Shown here: piece after piece, positions 2,068-57,328 of the stretch
Numbering within the stretch: the stretch's first letter is position 1
How the letters are laid out: each line of letters opens with the position of its first letter
IMG/VR virus record: IMGVR_UViG_3300010396_000045
Coordinates: 1 to 64,000 of that record
Source: a virus
Length of the DNA stretch: 64,000 bases
Direction: 5' to 3' (one strand)
The notes under the pieces: model-generated
What the model saw: the letters and a program-made list of their open reading frames with translations, nothing else
Databases searched by the model: none
Told to the model about the DNA's origin: nothing
Program-made: the position numbers and the translations under genes

Positions 2068-2606
2068 GTATCGCAAGTTGGATCTACGACCATGCACCAG
2101 AACGCGTCCGAGACTGGATGGAACAGCGCGCGCAAGATAGGGAGGCCAGCGAGCAGTACGAAGCTTATCTGGATCGTCAGGGGCCATCAATTGATCAGGA
2201 GGCCGCCTCCGTCTTCGGCGACAGGCGAAAATACAATATCGAGCACGGAATACCGCTTACTCCATCGCAGCAAGAAGAGCAGCGCAAGGTAGATCGGATC
2301 TTCGAGCGAGAAGGTGATGACCGCGATTACGCAGCCCTCAGCCAACAGAGAACACCCAAAGAAACTAGAGCGGCTGAATGGGCGGAAGCAGATGAATATC
2401 ATGACCCAGACCGCCTAGTAGCAGACTGGTTAAAGCCTGCTGCTGAGCGAGTGGAGCTAGGGATTGAGACGCCACGTCCAGACCTCAGCCAGCAACAGCA
2501 GCAGACGCGAGACTACGTCAAGGAAATGGTCGATCGGCTGGAGGAAATAGAGCGAGAGCATCCGAAAGAGCGCAGGCAGGAGCGGGGGGAGGAGAGAGAG
2601 CGATGA
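2064..2606 (+). CDS. Hypothetical charged protein coupled to the coupling protein
   Basis: ATGA overlap; Glu/Arg-rich tail ERRQERGEERER resembles C-terminal T4SS substrate signals. Confidence 0.6.
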   Translation: MSIASWIYDHAPERVRDWMEQRAQDREASEQYEAYLDRQGPSIDQEAASVFGDRRKYNIEHGIPLTPSQQEEQRKVDRIFEREGDDRDYAALSQQRTPKETRAAEWAEADEYHDPDRLVADWLKPAAERVELGIETPRPDLSQQQQQTRDYVKEMVDRLEEIEREHPKERRQERGEERER

Positions 2607-2836: not shown

Positions 2837-3247
2837 CTACTGCTGGGAAACGACTGGCGCTGACACGGCGGGCGCCAGCGTAATCCTCTCGTCAGGCGGA
2901 TATGCAAAATTGGCCCCGCTCGCCGCGTCGACCACCACCCCAATCAACCCGCCAGCCACGATGTTCCCAAAGGTCGTCCCCTGGAACTTCGGAGACTCAG
3001 TCACATTGGCTGCCTGATACCCCGCATGTTCACAGTGGATCGCTAAATCATCCTTGCTCTTGTCCAGATGCAGACTCCCCGGCGTCGGATTTACCTGGCC
3101 GACCCGAGCCCCATGTCGGTTCACGACACAGTCAGCCCCAGGAGGGTCCGTCGAGATCGTAATCGACTGACTGGTGCCCTCGAAGATCGTCGCGCACCCA
3201 GGCAGAAACAGGACCGCGCACAAGGCGCCCAAGAGTGACTTTCCCAT
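2837..3247 (-). CDS. Lipoprotein with PEGA-like domain
   Basis: Lipobox LPGC, then ATIFEGTSQSITISTDPPGADC and GNIVAGGLIGVVVDAASGA. Confidence 0.75.
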   Translation of the reverse strand: MGKSLLGALCAVLFLPGCATIFEGTSQSITISTDPPGADCVVNRHGARVGQVNPTPGSLHLDKSKDDLAIHCEHAGYQAANVTESPKFQGTTFGNIVAGGLIGVVVDAASGANFAYPPDERITLAPAVSAPVVSQQ

Positions 3248-3413
3248 GGGACGCCCATACCGCCCCGAGAGTTACGGCGCGGTAACAGGACCCAATCAGT
3301 AGGAACTGACCGCTATACATTCTGCATACCTCTAGGCTGTAGTGAGCGGGCCGGATCGGTGTTCGACGCACAGAGACCGGCCCTAACCATGACGAACGAA
3401 TGGACCGCTCATT

Positions 3414-3739: not shown

Positions 3740-6700
3740 CTAGCGCTCGTGGCCCTTATCGCGATCCTGCTCAGGTTCCGGCTGTTCCTGCCTGTCCAGC
3801 GCCGCTTCCGCCCGCTCGATAGCCGCCGCCACGTCATCGGACGCCTTGTCATGCAGCGCTTCGTGGTCAAACCGTGGATCGATGCCATGCAGGATATGGT
3901 GATGGTCAAGCGGCGGAGCGGAAGCCCGCGCCTCCTCAAGCCTCTGGAGATAGGCGAGCTGGATCATGTCCTCGTACATCCCCTCGTAGCCCTCACCCGA
4001 AACCAACTTCGTTGCCCACTGGTCTAAGCGCTTGTCTCCTTCCCGATGGGCGACCTCCGATACGGCCTCCTGCTGGCTCCTAGTGGCCTCTACAACGGCC
4101 TGGACGATAGGAGCCGCCTGACGCTCCTCGACCTTCCTGGGGCGGCGTAGGCGCTTCGTGGGCCTATCCCAGACCGCTTCCTTCGCAGCTATCGTCCCTC
4201 GCCGCAGACCATTCGCCATCCGAGCGAAGTCCACCCCGAGCTGCTTGACCTCCTGGCGGGCCAGATTCCGCGCCATATTGGCGATGACAAACTGCTCTAC
4301 TTTCGCTCTGGCCGTAATCTGGTTCCGAGCGTCTCCCAACGGCCTCCGGTCCTTGATTTCCTGAAGCTCAGCGCCCTGGCTGGTGACTATCCACGACCGC
4401 ACGCGATGCCTGGACGCGGCTACATAGCCCTTGAGGGCGTTCACCGCCTGGGAGCCGGACGGATACAGCGCCAAATGCTCAGTGACCGTATCACCCTGCC
4501 TAGCGTCGATCGTCATAGCGTCCCCATAGGTCAGTCGGATCCGGTCGCCTGTTGCGTCTGGCTTCTTGAACTGCTCCCAAGGAACAGAAGCGACATGCCC
4601 CTTGGCGGTAAGTAGGACTAGGCCGGTCTCCTGAATCGAAATTATCTCTGCTACCGAGCCATTGTCGCCAACGCGCCCGGGCCGTCGCGCGCCCGAGTAT
4701 GTGCCATAGACCCGGTTGAACATCCTCACCCGGTCACCAATGGCAATGGGCAAATCATATTCGGCGCCGTGCTGGTCGACGGCAGGCAGGGTCCTAGCGT
4801 CTCCGCGCACCTCTCCCCTCGCCTGCCTGCGTTCCCTAATCGCCGCGCCAACTGCTAGAACGTCAGCGTTGGTCGGCACACTGATCCCGAACCGATAACG
4901 CGGGTCGTCCTTATTTTCCCTGGTCCGCTCGTCCCATAGGTCAACAGCCTGCTTGATCGCGTCCTTGTAGTCGCCTGGCACAATCAGCAGTGTTCCATCG
5001 CCACGCTTCTGCTCGAGAGCCTCGGCAACCGTGTCCTCGTTGCCTGATCTGAATTTCAGTGTCAGCTCAGCTTCGTGCTTCCCTTGTCGGACTGTCTCCA
5101 GAAGTTCCGGAAGGTTCTGCCCCATCACATGCTCAAACAGTCGTATCGTATTGCCGGCCTGGATTGGGTTTGTCTGAAGAGAGTCGCCTAACCCCACAAG
5201 CTGGAAGCCGTGTTGCTTCTGAAGGTGGGCAATATCAAGCATCATGCCCGTACCGACCTGGGACATCTCATCAAAAATTACGACCGTGCGAGCATCCGGC
5301 GTAATATGCCCCTTGCGGACGCCAGAAATAAACGCCTGCGCGGCATATGTTTTCTGGATACCGGCATCCTCTAGCGCATGCGCCTGACGCCACGGAACGG
5401 TTATCCCGATGGTCGTGCGCTGATCCTTATGCCAAGCATCGACAAGCGGAGAAAGTAGAGTCGTTTTCCCTACTCCTGCTGCGCCAATTCCAACCGATGC
5501 GCGCCCGCTTGTCCCGAGAAGGAGAGCCATTCGCTCCTGAGCAGGCGAAAGCTCTATGCCAGTTTCACGTGCAACAAACGCTATAGAATTCCGGATCGTA
5601 TATTCGCTAAGAACAGAACTCTTATCCTGCGCGGCCTCTTGCAGGAGGCCGATAGCCTCACGCTCCCGAGCAAGGTGCTTCTCTGTCGTAAAGCGATGGA
5701 ATAGCTGGTCCTGCCCTTCAGTCTTGGTCTTCCCCCAGATCAGAGTCGTAGTCTCTCCACCCTGCTCTACTCCCTCAGTCCGATACGCCTGCGTGATCGC
5801 AAGAATATCGCGCTCCGGATCTTTGGGATTTATGCCGTGGTCAATGAGACCTTCAGCAGCAGCAATCTGCGCAACCTGTCCGTCAAAAACCGAGAGCCTA
5901 TCAAGGGATTCCGCGAGTCTCGGCAAAGACGCCTCATAGCCAGCCTTAATGCGATGCCGCCAACTTGCGAGGAACCGTTCACGCCCAGGCCTTAGAACGC
6001 TGCGGTGTTTATATCCGGCGTCCTCTGCTTGCTTTTTCCAGCTCTCTACATCAGCCTTCTGATCGTCAGGCTTGGACATTCTGCGAATTTCAATAGCTCG
6101 ATCAAGCAGAGTGACCTTGGCCTTTGGAGAGAGCGTATCCCAGTCCATTCCAATACGCTCGGCATATTTCTTCGCCGCCTCGTTGCCATTAACCGTGGCT
6201 TTGGAAAATAGCTCAACTGCCCATCGCGGAACGCTGTGGATTTCAGACATTCCCGTCCGCTTATCAAGGCCGGCTTCGACGCCATGTTCCCGTAGCTTCT
6301 GAGCAAGAAGAGCCTGATAAACCTTCCCTATCTTTTTAACTTGTCCGTTCAGGCGCTTCGTATCAATCGCGCCGACATGCTCTACTTGCCCATCCTTGAA
6401 CACCGCGACGACGTTCGGCGATACAACATGCGTATGGATCTGCATGTCCCCATCAAGGCTAGATTCCTTGAGGATAGTATCATTGCCTGAAGCTATCTGA
6501 GCGACTGGTCGAGCAGTGTAGTCCTCGAACTTCCACCAGAACATATGCCCTTTGTCGGCACCCTTACGACCAGCTTGTCCGCGCCGCGCCCAGCCTATAC
6601 GGCTCTCCAGGTAGGGCAATGCATGGTCAACCGCCCAACGGTGAGCGCCGAGGATTTTGTCCTTCTCCTCCTGGGTCTCAGCTAGAGCCCAAGCAATCGA

Positions 6701-20020: not shown

Positions 20021-20641
20021 TTAGCTCCGGTGTCGCACCGGAGTTCTAATAGCCCGCTCGACATCCCAACCCAATTTGCGCACGCGGCTGTAGATAGTTC
20101 CTTCAGCCTCTCCCATGCGTCGGATCTCATCCGCGAGAATAGTCCCAGACTTGGTTCTTATATTAGACCGGGCATTACGGACCTGTTCCTGCTGAGAAGC
20201 CCACCGACAGTTCTCTGGCTCGTAATTCCCATTATGGTCGATGCGCTCAATAGTTGGCTTCCCAGGTAGCCTGGGACCCATATCTGCATAGAAATTAGCG
20301 AAGTCCTTCCAACGGTCACAGACGACTATTCCTCGGCCTCCATAATGCCGATAATCCTCGCCTTTGGGGTTATTGCACCGATTATTCATAGCGCACCACG
20401 AAGCATATTCCGGGGAATCAGCCATCCCGTGCTTTCTGTTCCGGTCACCTAGCTGCTTCTTGTGGACGCACCCGCATGAGGTGGTATCGCCGTTCTTAAG
20501 ACTCATCGCCTGGATTGACTTCTCATTCCCACAATCGCATTTGACGAACCATTTTGTGCGCCCTGCTGGGGTTTTCTGTGGGTCGAGAGATAAAACGACC
20601 AGCCTACCGAACCGCCTACCCTTCAAGTCCTCTAAAGCCAT
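20021..20641 (-). CDS. Free-standing HNH homing endonuclease
   Basis: [13 protein letters not shown]...[35 protein letters not shown]. Confidence 0.9.
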
Positions 20642-35437: not shown

Positions 35438-36208
35438 ATGGCTGAGAAGACTATAGCACGCCCAATGCGTGGAGATAGATGCGCCCGCAATCCGCTGCGG
35501 GACCTTTATCCGGTAGAATACCAAGCCTGGGTGCAGCTTAGACAGAGATGCTACAATCCAGATAACGAAAGCTACTCGAATTATGGCGCAAGAGGCATCC
35601 GCGTCGAGGCTATATGGGATACCTTCGAGGGCTTTATGGCCACCATGGGGCCTAAGCCATCCCCAGACCTTAGCGTCGAGCGGCCAGACAATGATGGGAA
35701 TTACGGCGCTCAATGCTACTGGGGAACCCCAGATGAGCAGAACAACAACAATCGGCACAATCACCCGATAACCTATGACGGACGAACACAGAACCTAGAG
35801 CAATGGTCTCAGGAAATCGGGCTTGACCATACGGCGCTTCTGAAGCGGCTTAGACTGAAGTGGACTATAGGTCAGGCGCTAGGGTTCGAGCCTCCTCCAT
35901 TCAATCCCAAGGCCCACAATGGGACTACCGTGTCCGAAAAGTTGGCTTGTGGCGTCAACCGGACGACTTACCAAATGCGAATCGCTTCGGGATGGACCGA
36001 CGAAGCCGCGAGGCAGAATGTCGATGGGCGCAAGCACAAGCAGAACAAGCATCCGAAGTATATCTACGTCAGCCATCCGGCTCTTGGCGAAGGAGAGTTC
36101 ACCATTCAGCAGGCCGCTTTGATCGTAGGAAAGAAACCCAACACGGTGACTGTAGCAATAACCCGCAGAGGGAAGACGCCTCTGCAAGCTCTTGGACTGG
36201 AGAAGTAG
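35438..36208 (+). CDS. Free-standing HNH homing endonuclease with repeated C-terminal DNA-binding modules
   Basis: EYQAW..LRQRC.NP....Y.NYGARGI.V, SVERPDNDGNY...CYWGT..EQNNN, ITYDGRTQNLEQW. Confidence 0.88.
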   Translation: MAEKTIARPMRGDRCARNPLRDLYPVEYQAWVQLRQRCYNPDNESYSNYGARGIRVEAIWDTFEGFMATMGPKPSPDLSVERPDNDGNYGAQCYWGTPDEQNNNNRHNHPITYDGRTQNLEQWSQEIGLDHTALLKRLRLKWTIGQALGFEPPPFNPKAHNGTTVSEKLACGVNRTTYQMRIASGWTDEAARQNVDGRKHKQNKHPKYIYVSHPALGEGEFTIQQAALIVGKKPNTVTVAITRRGKTPLQALGLEK

Positions 36209-50142: not shown

Positions 50143-50952
50143 CTAAGTCCCTGGAGTTGGTGGGACTGTCTGGGCGGCAGCCGGAACACCAGCTACGCCG
50201 TGCCTGTGAGTAGACAGCCCCACCTGGTCTGCCGTCCCAAAGCCGCCCGTTACCGTCCCGGTGATCTGCAAGTTGCCGTTGATCTTCACCAGAGGACAGT
50301 TAATCGTCATCAGGCTCGCGCTGTTGACAGTCACGGTAGGCGCAGTGACCGTAGCCGAATTGTTGGCCGTCACGGTCACGCTAGAAGCGCCGGTAATGTT
50401 GACGACGTTGTTCTGCGCGTCCGCCTCTATCGTTATCCCCTTGACGACCAGCCTGACCTTCTCGTTGTCGTTATCGACCTCGGCATAGATCGACCCGTCG
50501 CTCGTCCGGAGCTGCGCCGTCGTCGTCGAGAGGTTGCTGATCTTTGTGGCTTGAGACCAAGGCCCAGGTATCGCGAAGCCGTCCGACAAATCGTGCATTC
50601 GCAATTCTCGCTGCGTTTGCACTCCGCCTTGCTGCCACCAGTTGTCGATGCACCGGGAGCTGAAAACGATCAGGCATTCGTCCCCCTGCTGCACCGGAAA
50701 CGTCAGCGCATATTGCCCGCCCCGAGGAAAGATAACCGGGACGTCGGGAATGACAGGCATGACCTTCCATTCCTTCGTCTGGTCTGGCCCCGTATAGAGC
50801 GCGTGTAGCGCAGGCTGGACCTGTGCCGTTATCGTATCCGCATCGTAGCTGGTGATGATGCCGGGTAACGCGGTCCAAATGCCGGATTGTCTGCTCTGAA
50901 TAGCACTTTTAACCGCGCTCTGGGGGTTTTCGTAGCGTTCTCGGTCTTGCAT
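50143..50952 (-). CDS. Baseplate spike (Gp138/gpV-like)
   Basis: IWTALPGII, DVPVIFPRGG, GDECLIVFSSRCIDNWW, RMHDLSDGFAIPG, C-terminal HRH. Confidence 0.92.
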   Translation of the reverse strand: MQDRERYENPQSAVKSAIQSRQSGIWTALPGIITSYDADTITAQVQPALHALYTGPDQTKEWKVMPVIPDVPVIFPRGGQYALTFPVQQGDECLIVFSSRCIDNWWQQGGVQTQRELRMHDLSDGFAIPGPWSQATKISNLSTTTAQLRTSDGSIYAEVDNDNEKVRLVVKGITIEADAQNNVVNITGASSVTVTANNSATVTAPTVTVNSASLMTINCPLVKINGNLQITGTVTGGFGTADQVGLSTHRHGVAGVPAAAQTVPPTPGT

Positions 50953-52055
50953 TATAGAGGTGTCGTCCCCGGCGAAGGTCCTAACACAGCCGATGCAGAT
51001 AGAGGCGGAGGGGGAGGAACGTTGAGGTTAGCTTGCGGCGTGTTAGCCGTGGGATCTACCGATAACGCCGTAAGCCTAGTGTACCACTCGCCGCCTCGCG
51101 TATCACCGACGTGGCTCGCGTAGATCACGACATAGTCTCCGTCGCTATTCAGCGGAGGAACCCATGCTCCCTGGTTCCCAAAGGCAGCATTAGGAGAAGC
51201 CGCCCGTTGGTTTATCGTCGCATTAGCTGCCGCAAGGCGTAGCTGCGCAATCTCACTATTATTGAAGCGAACCCGCGCTCCCCAAACGACACTTGGGTTC
51301 AACAAGCACATCGCCTGTATTCCCGTTTCAGTCTGTTCCGGAGTTCCTATCTGGCCTGTGGCCGAATTTATGATTACTGCCTCTCCAGGACGGACAGAAA
51401 ACTTTGGGAGAACCTGGAGCTGGTTTTGATAAATGTTCCAAGTGCACGAATAGGAGTCAGCAAAATCGTCAAGATAATCGCGTGTTAGCCCATGCATTAC
51501 CTTACCACGAGGAGCCGGCTGGGCCTGCAAGCCATCGGGAGGGCCGCCATATGTTGCCTGCCACGGAGAAAGTGAATCGGCACAGTGTTGAAGAACATCC
51601 TCGCTCGTATAGCCTTTTGCTAGGCTCTTGGAGAGGAATCCGAAATTATGGGCCATATCTCCGTCAGCCGCAAAGATGTCGATGTATGTATCTACATTGG
51701 ACTCTTTGCCGGTACGGAGTTGATAGATGTAGCCCTGGAATAGTTGACCAAAGTTCTGCTGGTAGCCGGCCTTCAACACGACCTGCGCCGAAGTCTTCCT
51801 AGGAACTCCGACTATCGTCGCACCGTTCTGGCTTGCTAGACCTACAATCCTTTCCGTAGTGTTGGAACTCAGGTTATAAACTCTTGCATGTAGAGACGCG
51901 GGGGTATCTCTCGTCCAATAGTTGACAGTGAAACGAATCCTCAAGACATTCGGCTGGTCAGGACCCGCTAGCTCGATACCATTACCTTGCATGTCAGCAA
52001 CGACGAGGGAGCATGCTCGCAGCCACTGAGCAGCGCTACTTACTGTCTGGCTCAC
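50952..52055 (-). CDS. Baseplate hub protein
   Basis: QWLRACSLVV, RVYNLS, LKAGY...GQLFQG, AADGD, PRGKV, TGQIGTPEQT, GDTRGGEWY. Confidence 0.88.
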   Translation of the reverse strand: MSQTVSSAAQWLRACSLVVADMQGNGIELAGPDQPNVLRIRFTVNYWTRDTPASLHARVYNLSSNTTERIVGLASQNGATIVGVPRKTSAQVVLKAGYQQNFGQLFQGYIYQLRTGKESNVDTYIDIFAADGDMAHNFGFLSKSLAKGYTSEDVLQHCADSLSPWQATYGGPPDGLQAQPAPRGKVMHGLTRDYLDDFADSYSCTWNIYQNQLQVLPKFSVRPGEAVIINSATGQIGTPEQTETGIQAMCLLNPSVVWGARVRFNNSEIAQLRLAAANATINQRAASPNAAFGNQGAWVPPLNSDGDYVVIYASHVGDTRGGEWYTRLTALSVDPTANTPQANLNVPPPPPLSASAVLGPSPGTTPL

Positions 52056-52085
52056 TTGCTTCTTGCCGCCGTAAAGCTATATAAT
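52056..52085 (+). promoter_or_regulatory. Sigma70-like promoter for pentamer array 1
   Basis: TTGCTT (52056-52061), 18 nt spacer, TATAAT (52080-52085), just upstream of the 5' hairpin. Confidence 0.6.
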
Positions 52086-52091
52086 GAGGCA

Positions 52092-52230
52092 CGCTCCCCA
52101 GAGCGCATGGCTTGGTGTAGTCCGGTCAGGCGATGTATGGCGCGGTGGGGCTTGGAAGGGCAGTGTCAGGTATGGCACGGCTGGGTAAGGCAAGGAGAGC
52201 GGGGCTTAGGCTCCGCTCTATTTCTTTCTG
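52092..52230 (+). ncRNA. Candidate guide RNA 1: 5' hairpin, 17 GGY-NN pentamers (52109-52193), terminator hairpin
   Basis: GGCTT GGTGT AGTCC GGTCA GGCGA TGTAT GGCGC GGTGG GGCTT GGAAG GGCAG TGTCA GGTAT GGCAC GGCTG GGTAA GGCAA (13/17 exact GGY); flanked by CGCTC-CCCA-GAGCG and AGAGCGGGGC-TTAG-GCTCCGCTCT plus a U-rich tail. Confidence 0.8.
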
Positions 52231-52418
52231 TCCAGCCCGATCATCATGAGCCGACGAACTGCTTCTGGCCGGGTCGGCAAATCATCCTGAACTCGCCGCC
52301 AGTCATCCAACCGTACTAGCTGCGACCGCTCTAGCCGTACGTTGACCGCCTCGCTATCTACGCTTGGCCTGCCAATTTTCTTTGCCGATTTCTTAGCGCC
52401 GGATATTGACATGCCCAA
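52218..52418 (-). CDS. Ribbon-helix-helix regulator
   Basis: GRPSVDSEAVNVRL....LVRLDDWR......PTRPEAVRRL. Confidence 0.85.
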   Translation of the reverse strand: MGMSISGAKKSAKKIGRPSVDSEAVNVRLERSQLVRLDDWRRVQDDLPTRPEAVRRLMMIGLDRKK

Positions 52419-52445
52419 TACATAGCGCTATGCAATCTGCATAGC
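52406..52445 (+). promoter_or_regulatory. Promoter/operator between the RHH gene and the HNH-RAMP operon
   Basis: TTGACA at 52406-52411; perfect inverted repeat GCTATGCA-ATC-TGCATAGC at 52427-52445 over the expected -10. Confidence 0.6.
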
Positions 52446-52461
52446 AACACGGAATACATGA

Positions 52462-52887
52462 ATGCCGTGCCAGGGTCTAATCGGCGACTACTCATGCTCT
52501 GGCTGGCGCTCACTTGCTCAGCATATCCGAGAGCGCGACGGCAACCGATGCCGGGGCTGTAACCGGGGGCAGGAGACCATCGCGCTTGAGGTTCACCATC
52601 GGACCTACGGGACTCCGGGCCGCCCATGCGGAGCGTGTTATCTGACTGCCGTAGAAGACGACGACCTAGTTACCCTCTGCATTGAGTGCCACGAAGCGGT
52701 GACGAACGTGCGCCGGAAAGTGCGCTACGCCACCAGAAGCATAGAGATCGATACGATTGACCCTCCTGTGGCCGTAGTAGAGCCAGTCAGGAGGGTTCTG
52801 ATCGTTCCCGTCGAACTGGTTCCTCCTCCGGTAGCCGCCGGAGTCGTAGTCAGGCCTAAGAAGTTCAATCCATTCAGCGAAGGTTAA
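52462..52887 (+). CDS. Zn-finger HNH nuclease with Pro/Val-rich tail
   Basis: WRSLAQHIRERDGNRCRGC, LEVHHRTY, DLVTLCIECHE; ends 2 nt before the RAMP-like gene. Confidence 0.85.
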   Translation: MPCQGLIGDYSCSGWRSLAQHIRERDGNRCRGCNRGQETIALEVHHRTYGTPGRPCGACYLTAVEDDDLVTLCIECHEAVTNVRRKVRYATRSIEIDTIDPPVAVVEPVRRVLIVPVELVPPPVAAGVVVRPKKFNPFSEG

Positions 52888-52889
52888 GT

Positions 52890-53480
52890 ATGCACAAAAT
52901 ACTCAAGACACGTCTAATCTCTGTTGCGCCATTTATCATGCACAACGGTCAGACTGCCGATCCCCTAAACAAGTTCGCCAAGGCGATGAAGGAAATCAGC
53001 GGCAAGCGGAAGAAGACCGAGGCGGACTTCATTGAACTGGCCCGCATCGAGTACTTCGCCGGCCTTTACATCGATAAGGATGGCCCAATCATCCCATCCG
53101 TAATGCTAGAAGCTATGATTACGAAAGGCGCGGCAAAGGCCAAGAACAGTAAGCTAGCCGAGGCCGGAGTTATCGTCGACCAGCACGGTTACCTAGAATA
53201 CGACGGTCCTCGGACCCCGGAGGAACTTGTCGCTGACGATCGGTTCCGGCTGACAGTTCCTGTCCGCATCGGCCAACAGAAGGTCATCAGGACGCGCCCA
53301 ATCTTCCGGCAATGGGCGGCTGACATCGAGATCAAATACCTGGATGATATCATTAACGAACGCGACCTGCTTACCGCACTGCGGGCAGCGGGCACGTATG
53401 TCGGCATCGGTGACTGGCGCCCGCGCAACGGACGCTTCGCTCTCGCTGCCGATATGGCAGCCTTGAAAGAGGCGGCCTAG
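52890..53480 (+). CDS. Stand-alone Cas7/RAMP-like protein, candidate RNA-guided effector
   Basis: RAMP-like first strand TRLISVAPFIMHN, IIPSVMLEAMI helix, VIRTRPIF..W, C-terminal Gly-rich loop AGTYVGIGDWRPRNGRF; pentamer array begins at the base after the stop. Confidence 0.75.
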   Translation: MHKILKTRLISVAPFIMHNGQTADPLNKFAKAMKEISGKRKKTEADFIELARIEYFAGLYIDKDGPIIPSVMLEAMITKGAAKAKNSKLAEAGVIVDQHGYLEYDGPRTPEELVADDRFRLTVPVRIGQQKVIRTRPIFRQWAADIEIKYLDDIINERDLLTALRAAGTYVGIGDWRPRNGRFALAADMAALKEAA

Positions 53481-53605
53481 GGCTTGGTCAGGTCAGGCTC
53501 GGTATGGCTCGGCAGGGCAAGGCATAGTTGGGCAGTGTCCGGTCAGGCTTGGTATGGCTTGGTGAGGGCTTTCATAGCGGGGAGGAGGCGATACGTCGCC
53601 TTCTC
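53481..53605 (+). ncRNA. Candidate guide RNA 2: 17 GGY-NN pentamers (53481-53565) plus UACG-loop hairpin
   Basis: GGCTT GGTCA GGTCA GGCTC GGTAT GGCTC GGCAG GGCAA GGCAT AGTTG GGCAG TGTCC GGTCA GGCTT GGTAT GGCTT GGTGA (15/17 exact GGY); GAGGAGGCGA-TACG-TCGCCTTCTC at 53582-53605. Confidence 0.8.
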
Positions 53606-53607
53606 TT

Positions 53608-53701
53608 CGGTGCGAAAGTACCGCATGGTCGAGTACGGCCTGGTCAGGTGAGGCTGGCTATGGCGCGGTCTAGTCAGGTCCGGCGATGTTGGGTATGGCA
53701 G
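53608..53701 (+). ncRNA. Candidate guide RNA 3: GAAA-loop hairpin plus 15 GGY-NN pentamers (53627-53701)
   Basis: CGGTGC-GAAA-GTACCG CAT then GGTCG AGTAC GGCCT GGTCA GGTGA GGCTG GCTAT GGCGC GGTCT AGTCA GGTCC GGCGA TGTTG GGTAT GGCAG (11/15 exact GGY). Confidence 0.78.
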
Positions 53702-53713
53702 GGAAACTACTTT

Positions 53714-54100
53714 ATGATACGAGTACTGACCGTCACGGCAGCAATCCTATTAGCAGGATCTCTAGCTAATGCGGATGAGATCCGCTGGTTCGCGGGGCGC
53801 TATGTCAACGTTATGGATGGCTATGCCTATAGCGATCCCGACTCAATGATCGAGTGCTCTATAGATAGAGACTGGACAAAACCTCCGCTACCCCAGTTCC
53901 GGCATAAGCCGGCCCATGGCTCTTGTCAGCATGTCCTTCGTTCCGCAGCCAATCCTGGCTTCGTCCCATTTAGGGACGGATGGTTTATCAATACCGAGCC
54001 ACCATACGCAGGTATTATAGGTATGCAGTGCGGCGCGACTGTCGGCCAGAAGGATGGGGGATTCTGGTGTGACTGGCCCCCTTATGGAACCACAAAATAA
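53714..54100 (+). CDS. Secreted hypothetical protein
   Basis: Signal peptide MIRVLTVTAAILLAGSLANA begins at ATG 53714; the longer track call (53528) only reads through the arrays. Confidence 0.6.
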   Translation: MIRVLTVTAAILLAGSLANADEIRWFAGRYVNVMDGYAYSDPDSMIECSIDRDWTKPPLPQFRHKPAHGSCQHVLRSAANPGFVPFRDGWFINTEPPYAGIIGMQCGATVGQKDGGFWCDWPPYGTTK

Positions 54101-54465
54101 AGGTGCCCAGTCGTTCCAAGACCTGAGAAGTCCGGAACGCCGTCCGGATCACCGTCGACCTGGACCATAAGCGCTCCCCCGATGCCGAGGTATTCGTACT
54201 GGTAGAGTAGGTCGATGCCTGGGATTAGTGGCAACCCGGCGGCAATCGAGTTGCCAGTCGTATCACTGATATCCAGAAGCCAGCCGTCCAGCACGTTAGT
54301 GTCGAAAACCACATTCTGGCTAAGCGTATCTGCACCGATGGGTGCGCCAGATATTCCAGCGTTGGCCTCATGGTAGGTCAGCCTCATCGTATAGGTTACG
54401 CCCGCAAGCTGGATAGAGAATTCCTGCGCTTGGGCGATAAGCGGGATCTCGTACCATGTAGCCAT
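54082..54465 (-). CDS. Baseplate plug-like protein
   Basis: YEIPL...QEFSIQLAG..Y, WLLDISD..G....GLPLIPGIDLL.QY.YLGIGG, LG..GHLYF. Confidence 0.8.
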   Translation of the reverse strand: MATWYEIPLIAQAQEFSIQLAGVTYTMRLTYHEANAGISGAPIGADTLSQNVVFDTNVLDGWLLDISDTTGNSIAAGLPLIPGIDLLYQYEYLGIGGALMVQVDGDPDGVPDFSGLGTTGHLYFVVP

Positions 54466-55070
54466 CAGGCCGCGATCCTCGTAATCACGTTCCCCGTCTG
54501 AAGCGTGTCGCTGAACGTCGACGCCTGCTGCTGCGGCTGAACCGCACCACGCTGCGCTACCGCCGCCGTAGTCTGGGGAGAGGACTGCGCCGAAGCAGGG
54601 GTGATCTGCGCCGCCTCCGTGGAGACGATGATAACCTCTCGGCAGACCATGACGGCCTGGAGCGCGTATTCCGAGGCGCTGTTCGTCGTGATCCCTAGGC
54701 TGATGACCAGCATGTTGAGGTAGAGGCTCTTGCCGGTCGTGATCGATATCAGCGACGGAGGAGGCCCCTGAAGCGCCAGGAGCTGCTGGTAGACGTCCTG
54801 AACCCGCGTCTCGTAATAACCGCTATTGGACCAGGACCAGCGAAGCGTGACCTCGCGCGGCTTCTTGTATGCGTGGTCGGCAATGACGGTCCCGATCTCT
54901 ACGGGGTGTTCCGTAACCTGGACGTCGTCCCGGCTGGTTTCCTCAATCACGCAATCAGGTAGGATAATGCCCCATGGCCCGCTGATCCCCCGAGGCCTCC
55001 GAAGGAGGAGAACGTCCGTGACCTCTAAGAATGTAGCGGCAGCAGAGAGCGCCGTGAGAGCGCCACTCAT
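54465..55070 (-). CDS. Baseplate organisation/tube initiator protein
   Basis: VTEHPVEIG..IADHAYKKP, YQQLLALQ, TGKSLYLNMLV, CREVIIV. Confidence 0.85.
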   Translation of the reverse strand: MSGALTALSAAATFLEVTDVLLLRRPRGISGPWGIILPDCVIEETSRDDVQVTEHPVEIGTVIADHAYKKPREVTLRWSWSNSGYYETRVQDVYQQLLALQGPPPSLISITTGKSLYLNMLVISLGITTNSASEYALQAVMVCREVIIVSTEAAQITPASAQSSPQTTAAVAQRGAVQPQQQASTFSDTLQTGNVITRIAA

Positions 55071-57328
55071 TGGAACGCACCTTGCTGGTTGCGCTGAAGG
55101 TCTGCCCAGTGCCGGCGGTTATATTCGTCCCACGCGCGACCTACCGCGTTCGGATCAGCAGATGTGTTGATGGTGACGTTGTTGTTCTGCGTGATCGAAT
55201 TTCCGGCCTGGAAAGAGTCGCCTTGCAGCCTAGGGTCGGCTCCTAGAGCCTTGGCGTAGCTTAGACGCTTTCCTAGAGACCTATCGTCAGCGCCAGGACG
55301 TTCGTTGAAATTATAGTCCGCGACCGTCGCGCCTAAAATATCCTTCGTCTGGCTCAGCATGAAGCCGGCCTTCGCCTCGCTATGCTCCTGTTCCCACTTC
55401 GCGAAGTCGAGCTGCTCGTGCATCGAAGCCGACGTTAGCGGCTTACCGTATAACGACTGGAATGTAGCCTGCCGCTGCTGGTCCCACTGCCGCAAGCCGG
55501 CATGGCCCGAAGCATTGACGACGGTCGTGCTTAGACCGCTCTCGGCCATCATGTTCGAGACCATGCCGATAGCCTGGTGCATCGGCACGCCCTTGGACAT
55601 GAGGTATTTGACCGCCTCAATCGCCTTCGGATCGGTGATGCTCTTTACCGCGTCCTCGCCGCCAGACGCGCCGCCTCCGAATAAATGACCGACGATCCCT
55701 GCGCCTAATCCAGTAGCCCAGGAGCCAAAGCCTCCGGTCCCGCCTTCGCTCATTCCCTCAAGCGTGTCGTTCAGCTTGGCCATCTGAGTCGATAGCTGTT
55801 TGACGTTCGTCGGCAGCTCCGCCCCCTCGGCGACGGAGACGGGATTCAGATAGCTCAGGACGTGGCCCAGGCGCTCCAGGAGCGAGGGACCGCCGCTCCC
55901 CTTGTCTAGTAGCAGTTCCGGGTTGGTCGGCCCCTCACGCGCCCCAGGAGGCGCCGCGCGGAAGCCTGGGCGGCTGCGTGGATCTCCTATCTCGTCCTGC
56001 CCAGGACCGGCCATCTCGCCCTGGCCTATCGTCATCCCGGCGTAGACGCCGCCAGCTACTCCAGCGAGAGGGCCGAGGAAGCGTGCTGCCGCACCCGCTC
56101 CGCGCAAGATAGTACCTACAAGCCCCGTCAAACCCGCAGCAAAGCCAGTGCCAGTCGCTGCTACCGTTGCGCCCGCTGATACCGCCGCACGAGCGATGGC
56201 AGCAAACCCAGTTACGAACGAGACGACAAAGCGCCCGACGAAATAAGCCTCTAGCGCATGGAGTGGGGTAATCCAGCCGTTCGTCGCCTCGGCCAGCTTT
56301 CCCATGAGTTCTAGGAGCTTGCTAAGGCCGCTCTCGATCTCGCCCCACGGCAGGAAGCTCTTTCCGGTCTCCTGGAAGCGCTTGTAGTCCTCGAATAACT
56401 GAGACAGCAGCCCGATCAGGAGCGCTATCTTGCTCGTCTCGGGGAATATGAACGCCGCCATGATGGCAGCTATCGCCGTGACGATCTGCTGCTGGTCGGC
56501 AGGTAATCGCTCGAACCACCCGACGACCTTTCCGATCATCTCTACCGCGCCGCCGAACGCGGAACTGATGTGCTGGCCTATCCGGTCTAGAGTGCTGATG
56601 ATCTGGTCTGAATGGCTATCCAGCCAGCTAGTCATCGTCTGGAGAGCTGCCGTCATCCTTTGCAGGATCGGCAAGCCCTGATGACCCATTATATCATTTA
56701 AGCGTAGCTGGAAGCTCTGCCACGCTCGCTCAAAGAGCGTCGATTGCCTAGCGAACTCGTCTGGATCGAAATGGAATAGGCGGCGCGCGAAGTTGAACTC
56801 TTGGACGCCTTCTCCGACCTGGCCACCTCTGGTCAGAATCGCATTGAAGAAATCGGCACCGAGAAACTTCTCAAACTGCTGTCGGATAATGAACTGTTGG
56901 CCGGCTGACTCACGAGCGAAGCGCTCGCCGAAGTGCTGGAGCTGCTGGGTTAAGGAGCCAGGACCGGCATACTCTGTAAAGACTTGCGCCCACCCAGGCT
57001 GGGTGCGCATCATATGCGCGAGGTTAGACAGAGCCGTCATGGTCTGCTGGGGAGCTAGACCTAGCTTCTGCCAAGCGAACGTCAGCGCATCGATGTTGTT
57101 GACGGTATCATTTACCGTCATAGCTAGATACTGCATCTGCGAAGCGCTGCTCGCCATGTTGGCGACAGCCGCAGTTACAGCACCAGCAGCGCCTGCAATT
57201 CCGGCGCCAAGGCCGATAACGGCATTGGACATACTGGTGATGGCATCGAGGAATCGTCGTTGCGAACTCTCATCGACCCTATATCCAAGAGTCGCTAAAA
57301 ATTCTTTGATTACGACGGTATCAGCCAC
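55067..57328 (-). CDS. Tape measure protein with C-terminal phage lysozyme-2-like domain
   Basis: IKEFLATLGYRVD start, long helical body, AIGMVSNMMAESGL...GLRQW...EQLDF...ERP. Confidence 0.88.
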   Translation of the reverse strand: MADTVVIKEFLATLGYRVDESSQRRFLDAITSMSNAVIGLGAGIAGAAGAVTAAVANMASSASQMQYLAMTVNDTVNNIDALTFAWQKLGLAPQQTMTALSNLAHMMRTQPGWAQVFTEYAGPGSLTQQLQHFGERFARESAGQQFIIRQQFEKFLGADFFNAILTRGGQVGEGVQEFNFARRLFHFDPDEFARQSTLFERAWQSFQLRLNDIMGHQGLPILQRMTAALQTMTSWLDSHSDQIISTLDRIGQHISSAFGGAVEMIGKVVGWFERLPADQQQIVTAIAAIMAAFIFPETSKIALLIGLLSQLFEDYKRFQETGKSFLPWGEIESGLSKLLELMGKLAEATNGWITPLHALEAYFVGRFVVSFVTGFAAIARAAVSAGATVAATGTGFAAGLTGLVGTILRGAGAAARFLGPLAGVAGGVYAGMTIGQGEMAGPGQDEIGDPRSRPGFRAAPPGAREGPTNPELLLDKGSGGPSLLERLGHVLSYLNPVSVAEGAELPTNVKQLSTQMAKLNDTLEGMSEGGTGGFGSWATGLGAGIVGHLFGGGASGGEDAVKSITDPKAIEAVKYLMSKGVPMHQAIGMVSNMMAESGLSTTVVNASGHAGLRQWDQQRQATFQSLYGKPLTSASMHEQLDFAKWEQEHSEAKAGFMLSQTKDILGATVADYNFNERPGADDRSLGKRLSYAKALGADPRLQGDSFQAGNSITQNNNVTINTSADPNAVGRAWDEYNRRHWADLQRNQQGAFQ

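Follow-up and report, generated by a model that had tools for sequence, protein, structure and literature searches.

A 64,000-nt stretch of viral DNA (hereafter the window), part of a 93.6-kb IMG/VR virus record that is 87% complete by CheckV, carries a small HNH gene directly upstream of a gene for Vipr, the RNA-binding protein of the VIPR systems. Conservation across related loci shows that this pairing is real and makes it probably functional, with the HNH protein a conserved partner of Vipr. We favour the reading that the HNH is the effector nuclease of a phage VIPR, co-expressed with Vipr and acting on DNA in the vrRNA R-loop, and on comparative grounds consider it the probable one. A locus of this kind is already published, in that predicted HNH accessory proteins are listed in the VIPR preprint (bioRxiv 10.64898/2026.04.26.720920); what goes beyond the preprint is a nuclease-type VIPR in a phage baseplate operon, and a guide that matches a rival allele of the neighbouring gene better than its own.

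VIPR (Viral Interference Programmable Repeat) was first described in 2026 (bioRxiv 10.64898/2026.04.26.720920), with companion preprints on its structure (10.64898/2026.04.26.720927) and, as a follow-up, on its biology (10.64898/2026.10.15.759431). Vipr forms polymers along vrRNAs built from GGY/NN pentamers; their NN dinucleotides pair with dsDNA, skipping one target base per unit, and the characterised type II VIPR silences rival mobile elements (bioRxiv 10.64898/2026.04.26.720920). In that preprint, an HNH-domain Vap is named (fig. S21) among predicted HNH accessory proteins, and the nuclease types are proposed to destroy targets rather than repress them and to reside mainly in defence islands, not phages (bioRxiv 10.64898/2026.04.26.720920). 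How the accessory genes act and sense the filament 'remains unclear' (10.64898/2026.04.26.720927), and the VIPR literature contained no reported experiment on the HNH Vap, either on DNA cleavage or on Vipr binding.

Genomic setting of the HNH–vipr cassette

The HNH–vipr cassette is a 2-kb plus-strand island between the plug and hub genes of a minus-strand tail/baseplate operon (Table 1), not a defence island of the sort that houses nuclease-type VIPR (types III and V). The original prediction had the HNH gene ending at 52887 and a RAMP-like gene starting at 52890, and the ORF coordinates agree, as does the junction text (TAAGTATG): two nucleotides (GT) separate the TAA stop of the HNH gene (52885–52887) from the vipr ATG, and an AAGG lies 7 nt 5′ of that ATG.

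Table 1. Features of the HNH–vipr island, the surrounding tail/baseplate operon and other HNH genes in the window (positions are those of the window).
Feature	Position	Strand	Description
HNH endonuclease gene	20021–20641	−	
HNH endonuclease gene	35438–36208	+	
Baseplate hub	50952–52055	−	Weak gp41-like match; further baseplate genes in same operon
Own-allele site in hub gene, homologous to vrRNA A match in relative	51274–51323		Plus strand, antisense to gene
TATAAT element	52080–52085		Perfect TATAAT, 24 nt 5′ of array A; weak −35 TTGCTT, 18-nt spacer
vrRNA array A	52109–52198	+	18 GGYNN units, 15 with GG in phase; upstream of genes
vrRNA A 3′ tail	52196–52229	+	10-bp G+C-rich hairpin then T-run, terminator-like; −25.5 kcal/mol, z −4.0
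Arc/ribbon-helix-helix-like repressor	52218–52418	−	phrog_4738 transcriptional repressor, E 9.5e-6; divergent from HNH–vipr operon
Imperfect palindrome	52406–52447		22 nt; between Arc-like repressor gene and HNH
HNH ORF	52462–52887	+	141 aa
vipr ORF	52890–53480	+	196 aa
vrRNA array B	53481–53570	+	18 units, 16 with GG; starts 1 nt past vipr stop
vrRNA B 3′ tail	53562–53640	+	Long hairpin; −42.7 kcal/mol, z −5.9, 0/200 shuffles as stable
vrRNA array C	53637–53706	+	14 units, 11 with GG
Small signal-peptide protein	53714–54100	+	In plug/hub slot
Pam3 gp18-like baseplate plug	54082–54465	−	Tail/baseplate operon
Dit-like protein	54465–55070	−	PF21821, E 5e-25
Tape measure protein	55067–57328	−	Tail/baseplate operon

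The divergent Arc-like repressor gene and the palindrome beside it suggest that the nuclease operon is under repression. Homologues of this repressor were found in only six of 160 related loci, for which reason we rejected it as a core part and regard it as a sporadic neighbour. The plug/hub slot also holds a small signal-peptide protein gene, both in the window and in a close relative of this phage, L087 (positions 2129–2449, minus strand). The two secreted proteins are unrelated to each other, and the slot has the look of a hypervariable site for cargo (moron) genes.

The vipr product is a minimal RAMP

The 196-aa protein matches phrog_4652 (E = 3.5e-53) and no Pfam family, and its more than 500 homologues are all named hypothetical. 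The label 'RAMP-like' that it had been given from the sequence was nonetheless right: an AlphaFold model built on 39 homologues (pLDDT 93.9) found its only significant PDB fold matches in Csm3, Cmr4 and other Cas7 RAMP chains, and the family profile matched PDB chain 36pp_D, 'SUSP1 Vipr protein', over residues 4–188 (E = 2.1e-46). The functional residues H17, K33, R138, D177, W178 and R179 of the SUSP1 protein, with which it reads the GGY motif and holds the skipped base, align with H18, K34, R136, D175, W176 and R177 of ours, and all of these except K34 are invariant or nearly so in the 39 homologues. A Vipr is a minimal RAMP with an RRM core, a G-loop and a thumb; judged by homology and predicted fold, the product is a Vipr.

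The original prediction, noting that some class 1 CRISPR effectors recruit HNH domains, had suggested a guided nuclease. The locus is a real RNA-guided DNA-recognition system, but it is a VIPR and not a class 1 CRISPR effector, as the 36pp_D match, the six functional residues and the flanking GGYNN arrays described below indicate. The CRISPR reading was rejected, as the locus has neither a CRISPR array nor cas genes: no CRISPR-type tandem repeat array was found within the 64-kb window, where the repeat period at this locus is 5 nt, and no neighbouring gene matched a Cas family.

The HNH protein has the features of a nuclease

The protein encoded upstream of vipr scored 17.3 bits against Pfam HNH, under the 21.4-bit cut-off. 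Other evidence upholds the original call of a compact Zn-finger HNH. In PHROG, the ORF matched phrog_119 (E = 4.6e-12) and eight other HNH families at E ≤ 0.005, and 13 of the 15 families listed for it are HNH. Among solved structures, the profile of the family matched the HNH domain of IscB (3e-8) and Cas5-HNH (7e-8), and the top structural match of the AlphaFold model (pLDDT 81) was again a Cas5-HNH Cascade (8yha_A, E = 1.8e-3). By profile and by model, then, the nearest solved HNH domains are those of RNA-guided nucleases (IscB and Cas5-HNH Cascade), a likeness that is not in itself proof of a shared role. PADLOC returned only weak matches to the ZorE HNH, and a tblastn search of 50,697 phage records gave no match to this protein at 1e-5.

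In the AlphaFold model, residues 13–90 form the core, a beta-beta-alpha-metal fold with a CxxC...CxxC zinc site that includes a beta hairpin and a helix (74–90), and residues 91–141 are coil, without secondary structure. Across an alignment of 40 family members with a mean column identity of just 26%, W15, C30, H45, H46, Y49, C73, C76 and H77 are invariant and C33 is nearly so. The middle Asn of the HNH motif is replaced by Asp in most of these sequences, and the conserved part past the HNH core is a basic helix (T81, R85, R88). The catalytic His, the metal-binding His, the paired zinc cysteines and the fold of an HNH nuclease are thus all present.

The other two HNH genes of this phage (Table 1) are of a different sort, as the original prediction had it. 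The ORFs at 20021 and 35438 encode HNH endonucleases of phrog_374/3377 (E = 3e-63 and 3e-38), which at 205 and 256 aa are longer than the protein studied here and belong to other PHROG families.

HNH and Vipr are linked across a large clade

We searched the 80 IMG/VR loci nearest to the Vipr of the window with an HMM of the HNH family, and in 75 an HNH gene was adjacent to, upstream of and on the same strand as vipr. It was also adjacent and upstream in 66 of the 77 GTDB genome loci that had enough upstream DNA, so that the pair is present in 141 of 157 viral and genomic loci combined. The GTDB loci come mostly from Alphaproteobacteria (Methylobacterium, Azospirillum, Microvirga, Bradyrhizobium), with many MAGs of other phyla as well. 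Pairwise distances among Vipr and HNH sequences are strongly correlated (Mantel r = 0.894 over 63 unique loci, 0 of 2000 permutations as high), part of which is expected for any adjacent gene pair inherited together; the correlation nevertheless speaks against a homing endonuclease having invaded repeatedly and independently. The original prediction, which had made its case turn on co-occurrence of this HNH clade with the RAMP family, passes on both the counts and the co-divergence. More distant Viprs (35–42% identity), those of Mycobacterium phage LittleE, Gordonia phage Trine, Pseudomonas phage Medea1 and Escherichia phage wV8, are accompanied by a different small downstream gene and by no HNH; on sequence evidence, the HNH is specific to the Vipr clade of the window.

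These distributions bear on the possibility that the HNH is a free-standing, selfish homing endonuclease that recognises DNA by itself and is functionally unconnected with the RNA-guided complex. Phage genomes often carry HNH genes as mobile passengers, and this phage does have two others that are free-standing. Such a passenger, however, would be sporadically present and have an independent phylogeny, and neither was found: synteny is conserved across the clade, as in a vipr accessory gene, with the same HNH family in the same position and orientation in those 141 loci, over many phyla and co-diverging with Vipr. The protein is also small, with a core of about 80 aa and no separate DNA-binding module in either the alignment or the model. 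We regard a free-standing homing endonuclease as very improbable here. A complex prediction for Vipr and HNH, both entered as alignments, gave a score of 0.00, which counts neither for nor against binding.

The C-terminal tail is not a general docking peptide

The translation of the HNH gene ends ...VVRPKKFNPFSEG after a Pro/Val-rich stretch, just as first described. The original prediction went on to propose that this tail, ending KKFNPFSEG, docks the nuclease on the filament, and for this we found no support, because the Pro/Val tail is not conserved. The Pro/Val-rich stretch and the ...FNP... ending are kept only in the four nearest homologues (P0121–P0124), and the family alignment contains no conserved docking peptide at the HNH C-terminus. 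Residues 91–141 were therefore rejected as a specific docking peptide, being coil in the model and conserved only in those four, and the tail is not a good candidate for the means by which HNH is recruited.

Elsewhere in the family the tail is mostly an out-of-frame reading of vipr. Of 65 unique viral loci, 52 lack an HNH stop codon ahead of vipr, and the HNH ORF continues into vipr by 86–245 nt in the +2 frame (for example, 3682–4125 in L006 and 3694–4137 in L026, within the range L005–L084). The 'AQR..GRP.E' motif of these overlapping tails is the out-of-frame reading of the conserved HNGQTADP codons of Vipr. In low-G+C loci, the HNH stop precedes vipr and the tail end is Lys-rich. In the viral loci, the other alternative frame at the start of vipr reaches a stop at a median of 22 nt. 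In the window, the +2 frame over the vipr start is open for 143 nt (52892–53032), though the HNH ORF itself stops earlier. The overlap may encode a true C-terminus of the HNH, or it may follow from the conservation of Vipr codons where G+C is high.

One of 150 HNH-family representatives, P0240 (217 aa, cut at its end), continues from HNH in frame into Vipr, with residues about 116–217 corresponding to Vipr 16–114 (E = 5.7e-38). Either HNH and Vipr are naturally fused here or the overlap region was assembled with a frameshift, and we left the protein out as evidence because a single case could be such a frameshift. A search for longer homologues found no fused HNH–Vipr proteins, a result that weighs little.

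Three guide arrays flank the gene pair

In VIPR systems, vrRNA genes are tandem GGYNN (YNNGG) tracts of 9–16 or more units that lie beside vipr on its strand and lead into a structured 3′ tail. A period-5 GG scan of the 64-kb window detected exactly three GGYNN arrays, each of them on the plus strand and within the island (Table 1). Arrays A and B are followed by stable hairpins; past array C, no stable tail was detected, the sequence there folding like its shuffles (z −0.1). Same-strand arrays within 1.5 kb of a homologous vipr were found in 75 of 84 loci, at G+C contents of 39–68%, E. coli phage wV8 among them. The TATAAT element upstream of array A is a possible promoter of its own for vrRNA A, read outward from the start region of the hub gene.

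Many chromosomal HNH–vipr loci (within L125–L175, from Bradyrhizobium, Azospirillum, Nitrobacter, Pseudolabrys and others) have one array of about 10–12 units that starts 26–48 nt past vipr, which is probably the single-vrRNA architecture of the preprint.

The arrays bear in turn on a role for the HNH other than cutting target DNA, either trimming vrRNA precursors or acting as a non-cutting zinc-finger DNA-binding helper that boosts silencing, as the vap1 of type II does. An Rfam scan of the island gave only a chance-level match to RsmZ (E = 1.3), and Rfam hammerhead ribozymes were absent from 20 related loci of the HNH clade; multi-guide arrays lacking detected hammerheads would need some processing activity, and type II vap1, a predicted DNA-binding protein that enhances protection, offers a precedent for a helper. 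On the other hand, the catalytic His is invariant over deep divergence, in E. coli the vrRNAs of type II VIPR mature with no such nuclease, and the many HNH-bearing chromosomal loci with a single array should require little processing. We consider such a trimming or helper role unlikely.

A candidate target in the hub gene of a related phage

Decoded by the published rule, in which the NN bases pair and one base is skipped per unit, the arrays had no self-target above chance within the window, and the preprint likewise reports none above chance for its own systems (bioRxiv 10.64898/2026.04.26.720920). A candidate target came instead from the relative L087, which has the same gene order and shares the tape measure (86–90% amino acid identity), Dit (79%), plug (91%), hub (79%) and next gene (84%), with no VIPR cassette in its plug/hub slot. 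In the L087 hub gene, at 3230–3279 and about 730 bp from that slot, vrRNA A matches 26 of 34 guide bases (76%, which falls under the 80% NN threshold of the preprint; bioRxiv 10.64898/2026.04.26.720920), in antisense and with the skipped base on the wobble position. At the homologous site of its own hub allele, where the coordinates likewise put the skipped base on codon position 3, 20 of 34 bases match and 14 are mismatched. Shuffling the unit order of vrRNA A gave a maximum of 18.8 ± 0.9, with 23 the highest in 300 shuffles. Read as codons, the guide corresponds roughly to QVMCLLNPAISWGT, against QVMCLLNPAIAWGT in the relative and QAMCLLNPSVVWGA in the own allele. From this comparison with a single other allele (L087 and L095 being the same phage), vrRNA A appears to target the adjacent hub gene in its rival form while sparing the phage's own allele.

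A metagenome scan for further hub alleles returned only the L087 phage. For arrays B and C, no target was found in the fetched loci, and exact 10-unit patterns had zero matches in IMG/VR. Seeded comparison of 273 arrays, all against all, with the fetched loci turned up no convincing match. vrRNA A also matches, at 30 of 36 bases (83%), a 375-aa ORF (6640–6692, minus strand) on L086 (IMGVR_UViG_3300027833_000342), an unrelated low-G+C viral contig, with the skip at codon position 1 instead of the wobble position; this match may be due to chance, as it was found via an exact 9-unit seed.

A guide matching the rival allele of the gene next to the cassette raises the idea that a nuclease-armed VIPR acts as a programmable homing or marker-exclusion device. 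The HNH would cut the rival hub gene at the vrRNA A site during co-infection, and repair from the cassette-bearing genome would then copy the VIPR cassette and the linked hub allele into the rival. This would be a special case of the HNH serving as effector nuclease, not an alternative exclusive of it. The suggestion that the HNH mobilises its cassette could likewise be squared with a cassette-less relative and a guide match to the hub allele of that relative, and the best vrRNA A match in L087 does lie about 730 bp from the slot, with the own allele mismatched at 14 of 34 bases. However, the slot is not a clean insertion site: L087 carries an unrelated secreted-protein gene there, so that cargo replacement is indicated rather than clean insertion. 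The case also comes from one comparison genome and a 76% guide match, and homing is harder to reconcile with the HNH–vipr pairs that sit on bacterial chromosomes beside a single vrRNA. We think RNA-guided homing rather doubtful, although, if true, it would have no precedent among viruses as an RNA-guided homing endonuclease system and would contradict the preprint's view of nuclease-type VIPRs as host-defence derivatives.

A proposed effector nuclease for a phage VIPR

The reading that we prefer, with the HNH as effector nuclease, can be set out as follows. Vipr would polymerise on the GGYNN vrRNAs of arrays A, B and C, and the Vipr–vrRNA complex would use the NN dinucleotides to read dsDNA, skipping one base per unit, as in the SUSP1 and P. 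fulva VIPRs. The HNH, made from the same operon as Vipr, would most likely nick or cut DNA held in the Vipr–vrRNA R-loop, and such cutting would turn silencing into destruction of rival phage DNA. vrRNA A, finally, would direct the system to the baseplate-hub allele of a rival, with the own allele spared. Three of these elements are our inference: that the HNH is recruited to the filament, that cleavage depends on the guide, and what the biological target is. A cutting role would agree with the conserved catalytic residues and with the preprint's prediction for nuclease-bearing types; counting against it, type II VIPR acts through silencing and has no nuclease.

Only the nuclease-free type II VIPR has been studied experimentally so far. 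The locus described here is a compact four-part test case, with an HNH, a Vipr, three guides and a candidate natural target, and its HNH–Vipr pair is the dominant layout of a large clade. If the HNH does cut guide-specified DNA, two proteins adding up to roughly 340 aa would make a programmable nuclease that needs no PAM, and the system might also be a natural homing element guided by RNA.

Comparison with known systems

With the nuclease VIPRs of types III–V (bioRxiv 10.64898/2026.04.26.720920), the locus shares the Vipr RAMP, the GGY/NN vrRNAs and an adjacent small HNH gene. It differs from them in its setting, which is the baseplate operon of a phage and not a defence island, and in having three arrays, one upstream and two downstream, together with an Arc-like regulator. 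Type II VIPR, known from Escherichia phage SUSP1 and a Pseudomonas fulva prophage, has a homologous Vipr (34% identity to the wV8/SUSP1-type) with the six functional residues kept, and resembles our locus in its vrRNAs both up- and downstream, in being phage-encoded and in guides aimed at rival mobile elements. In contrast to our locus, type II carries vap1, a predicted DNA-binding protein, downstream of vipr, has no nuclease and silences transcription; LittleE, Trine, Medea1 and wV8 have this type II layout, with no HNH of the window type.

Outside VIPR, the type I-E and I-F HNH Cascades (Cas5-HNH, Cas8-HNH) are likewise RNA-guided RAMP filaments, in which the HNH domain cuts the bound DNA. 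There, however, the HNH is fused to a Cas subunit, whereas here it is a separate 141-aa protein, and our locus has no CRISPR array, no Cas1/2/3/8/11 and a guide period of 5 nt as opposed to 6 nt. The intronless homing of the T4 Seg/Mob endonucleases offers a different likeness: a nuclease cassette lodged between conserved phage genes, beside a gene whose allele in the rival has the predicted cut site and whose own allele is protected by polymorphism. Unlike Seg/Mob, whose distribution is sporadic, HNH and Vipr are conserved as a linked pair, and the specificity of such a system would come from the vrRNA and not from the protein.
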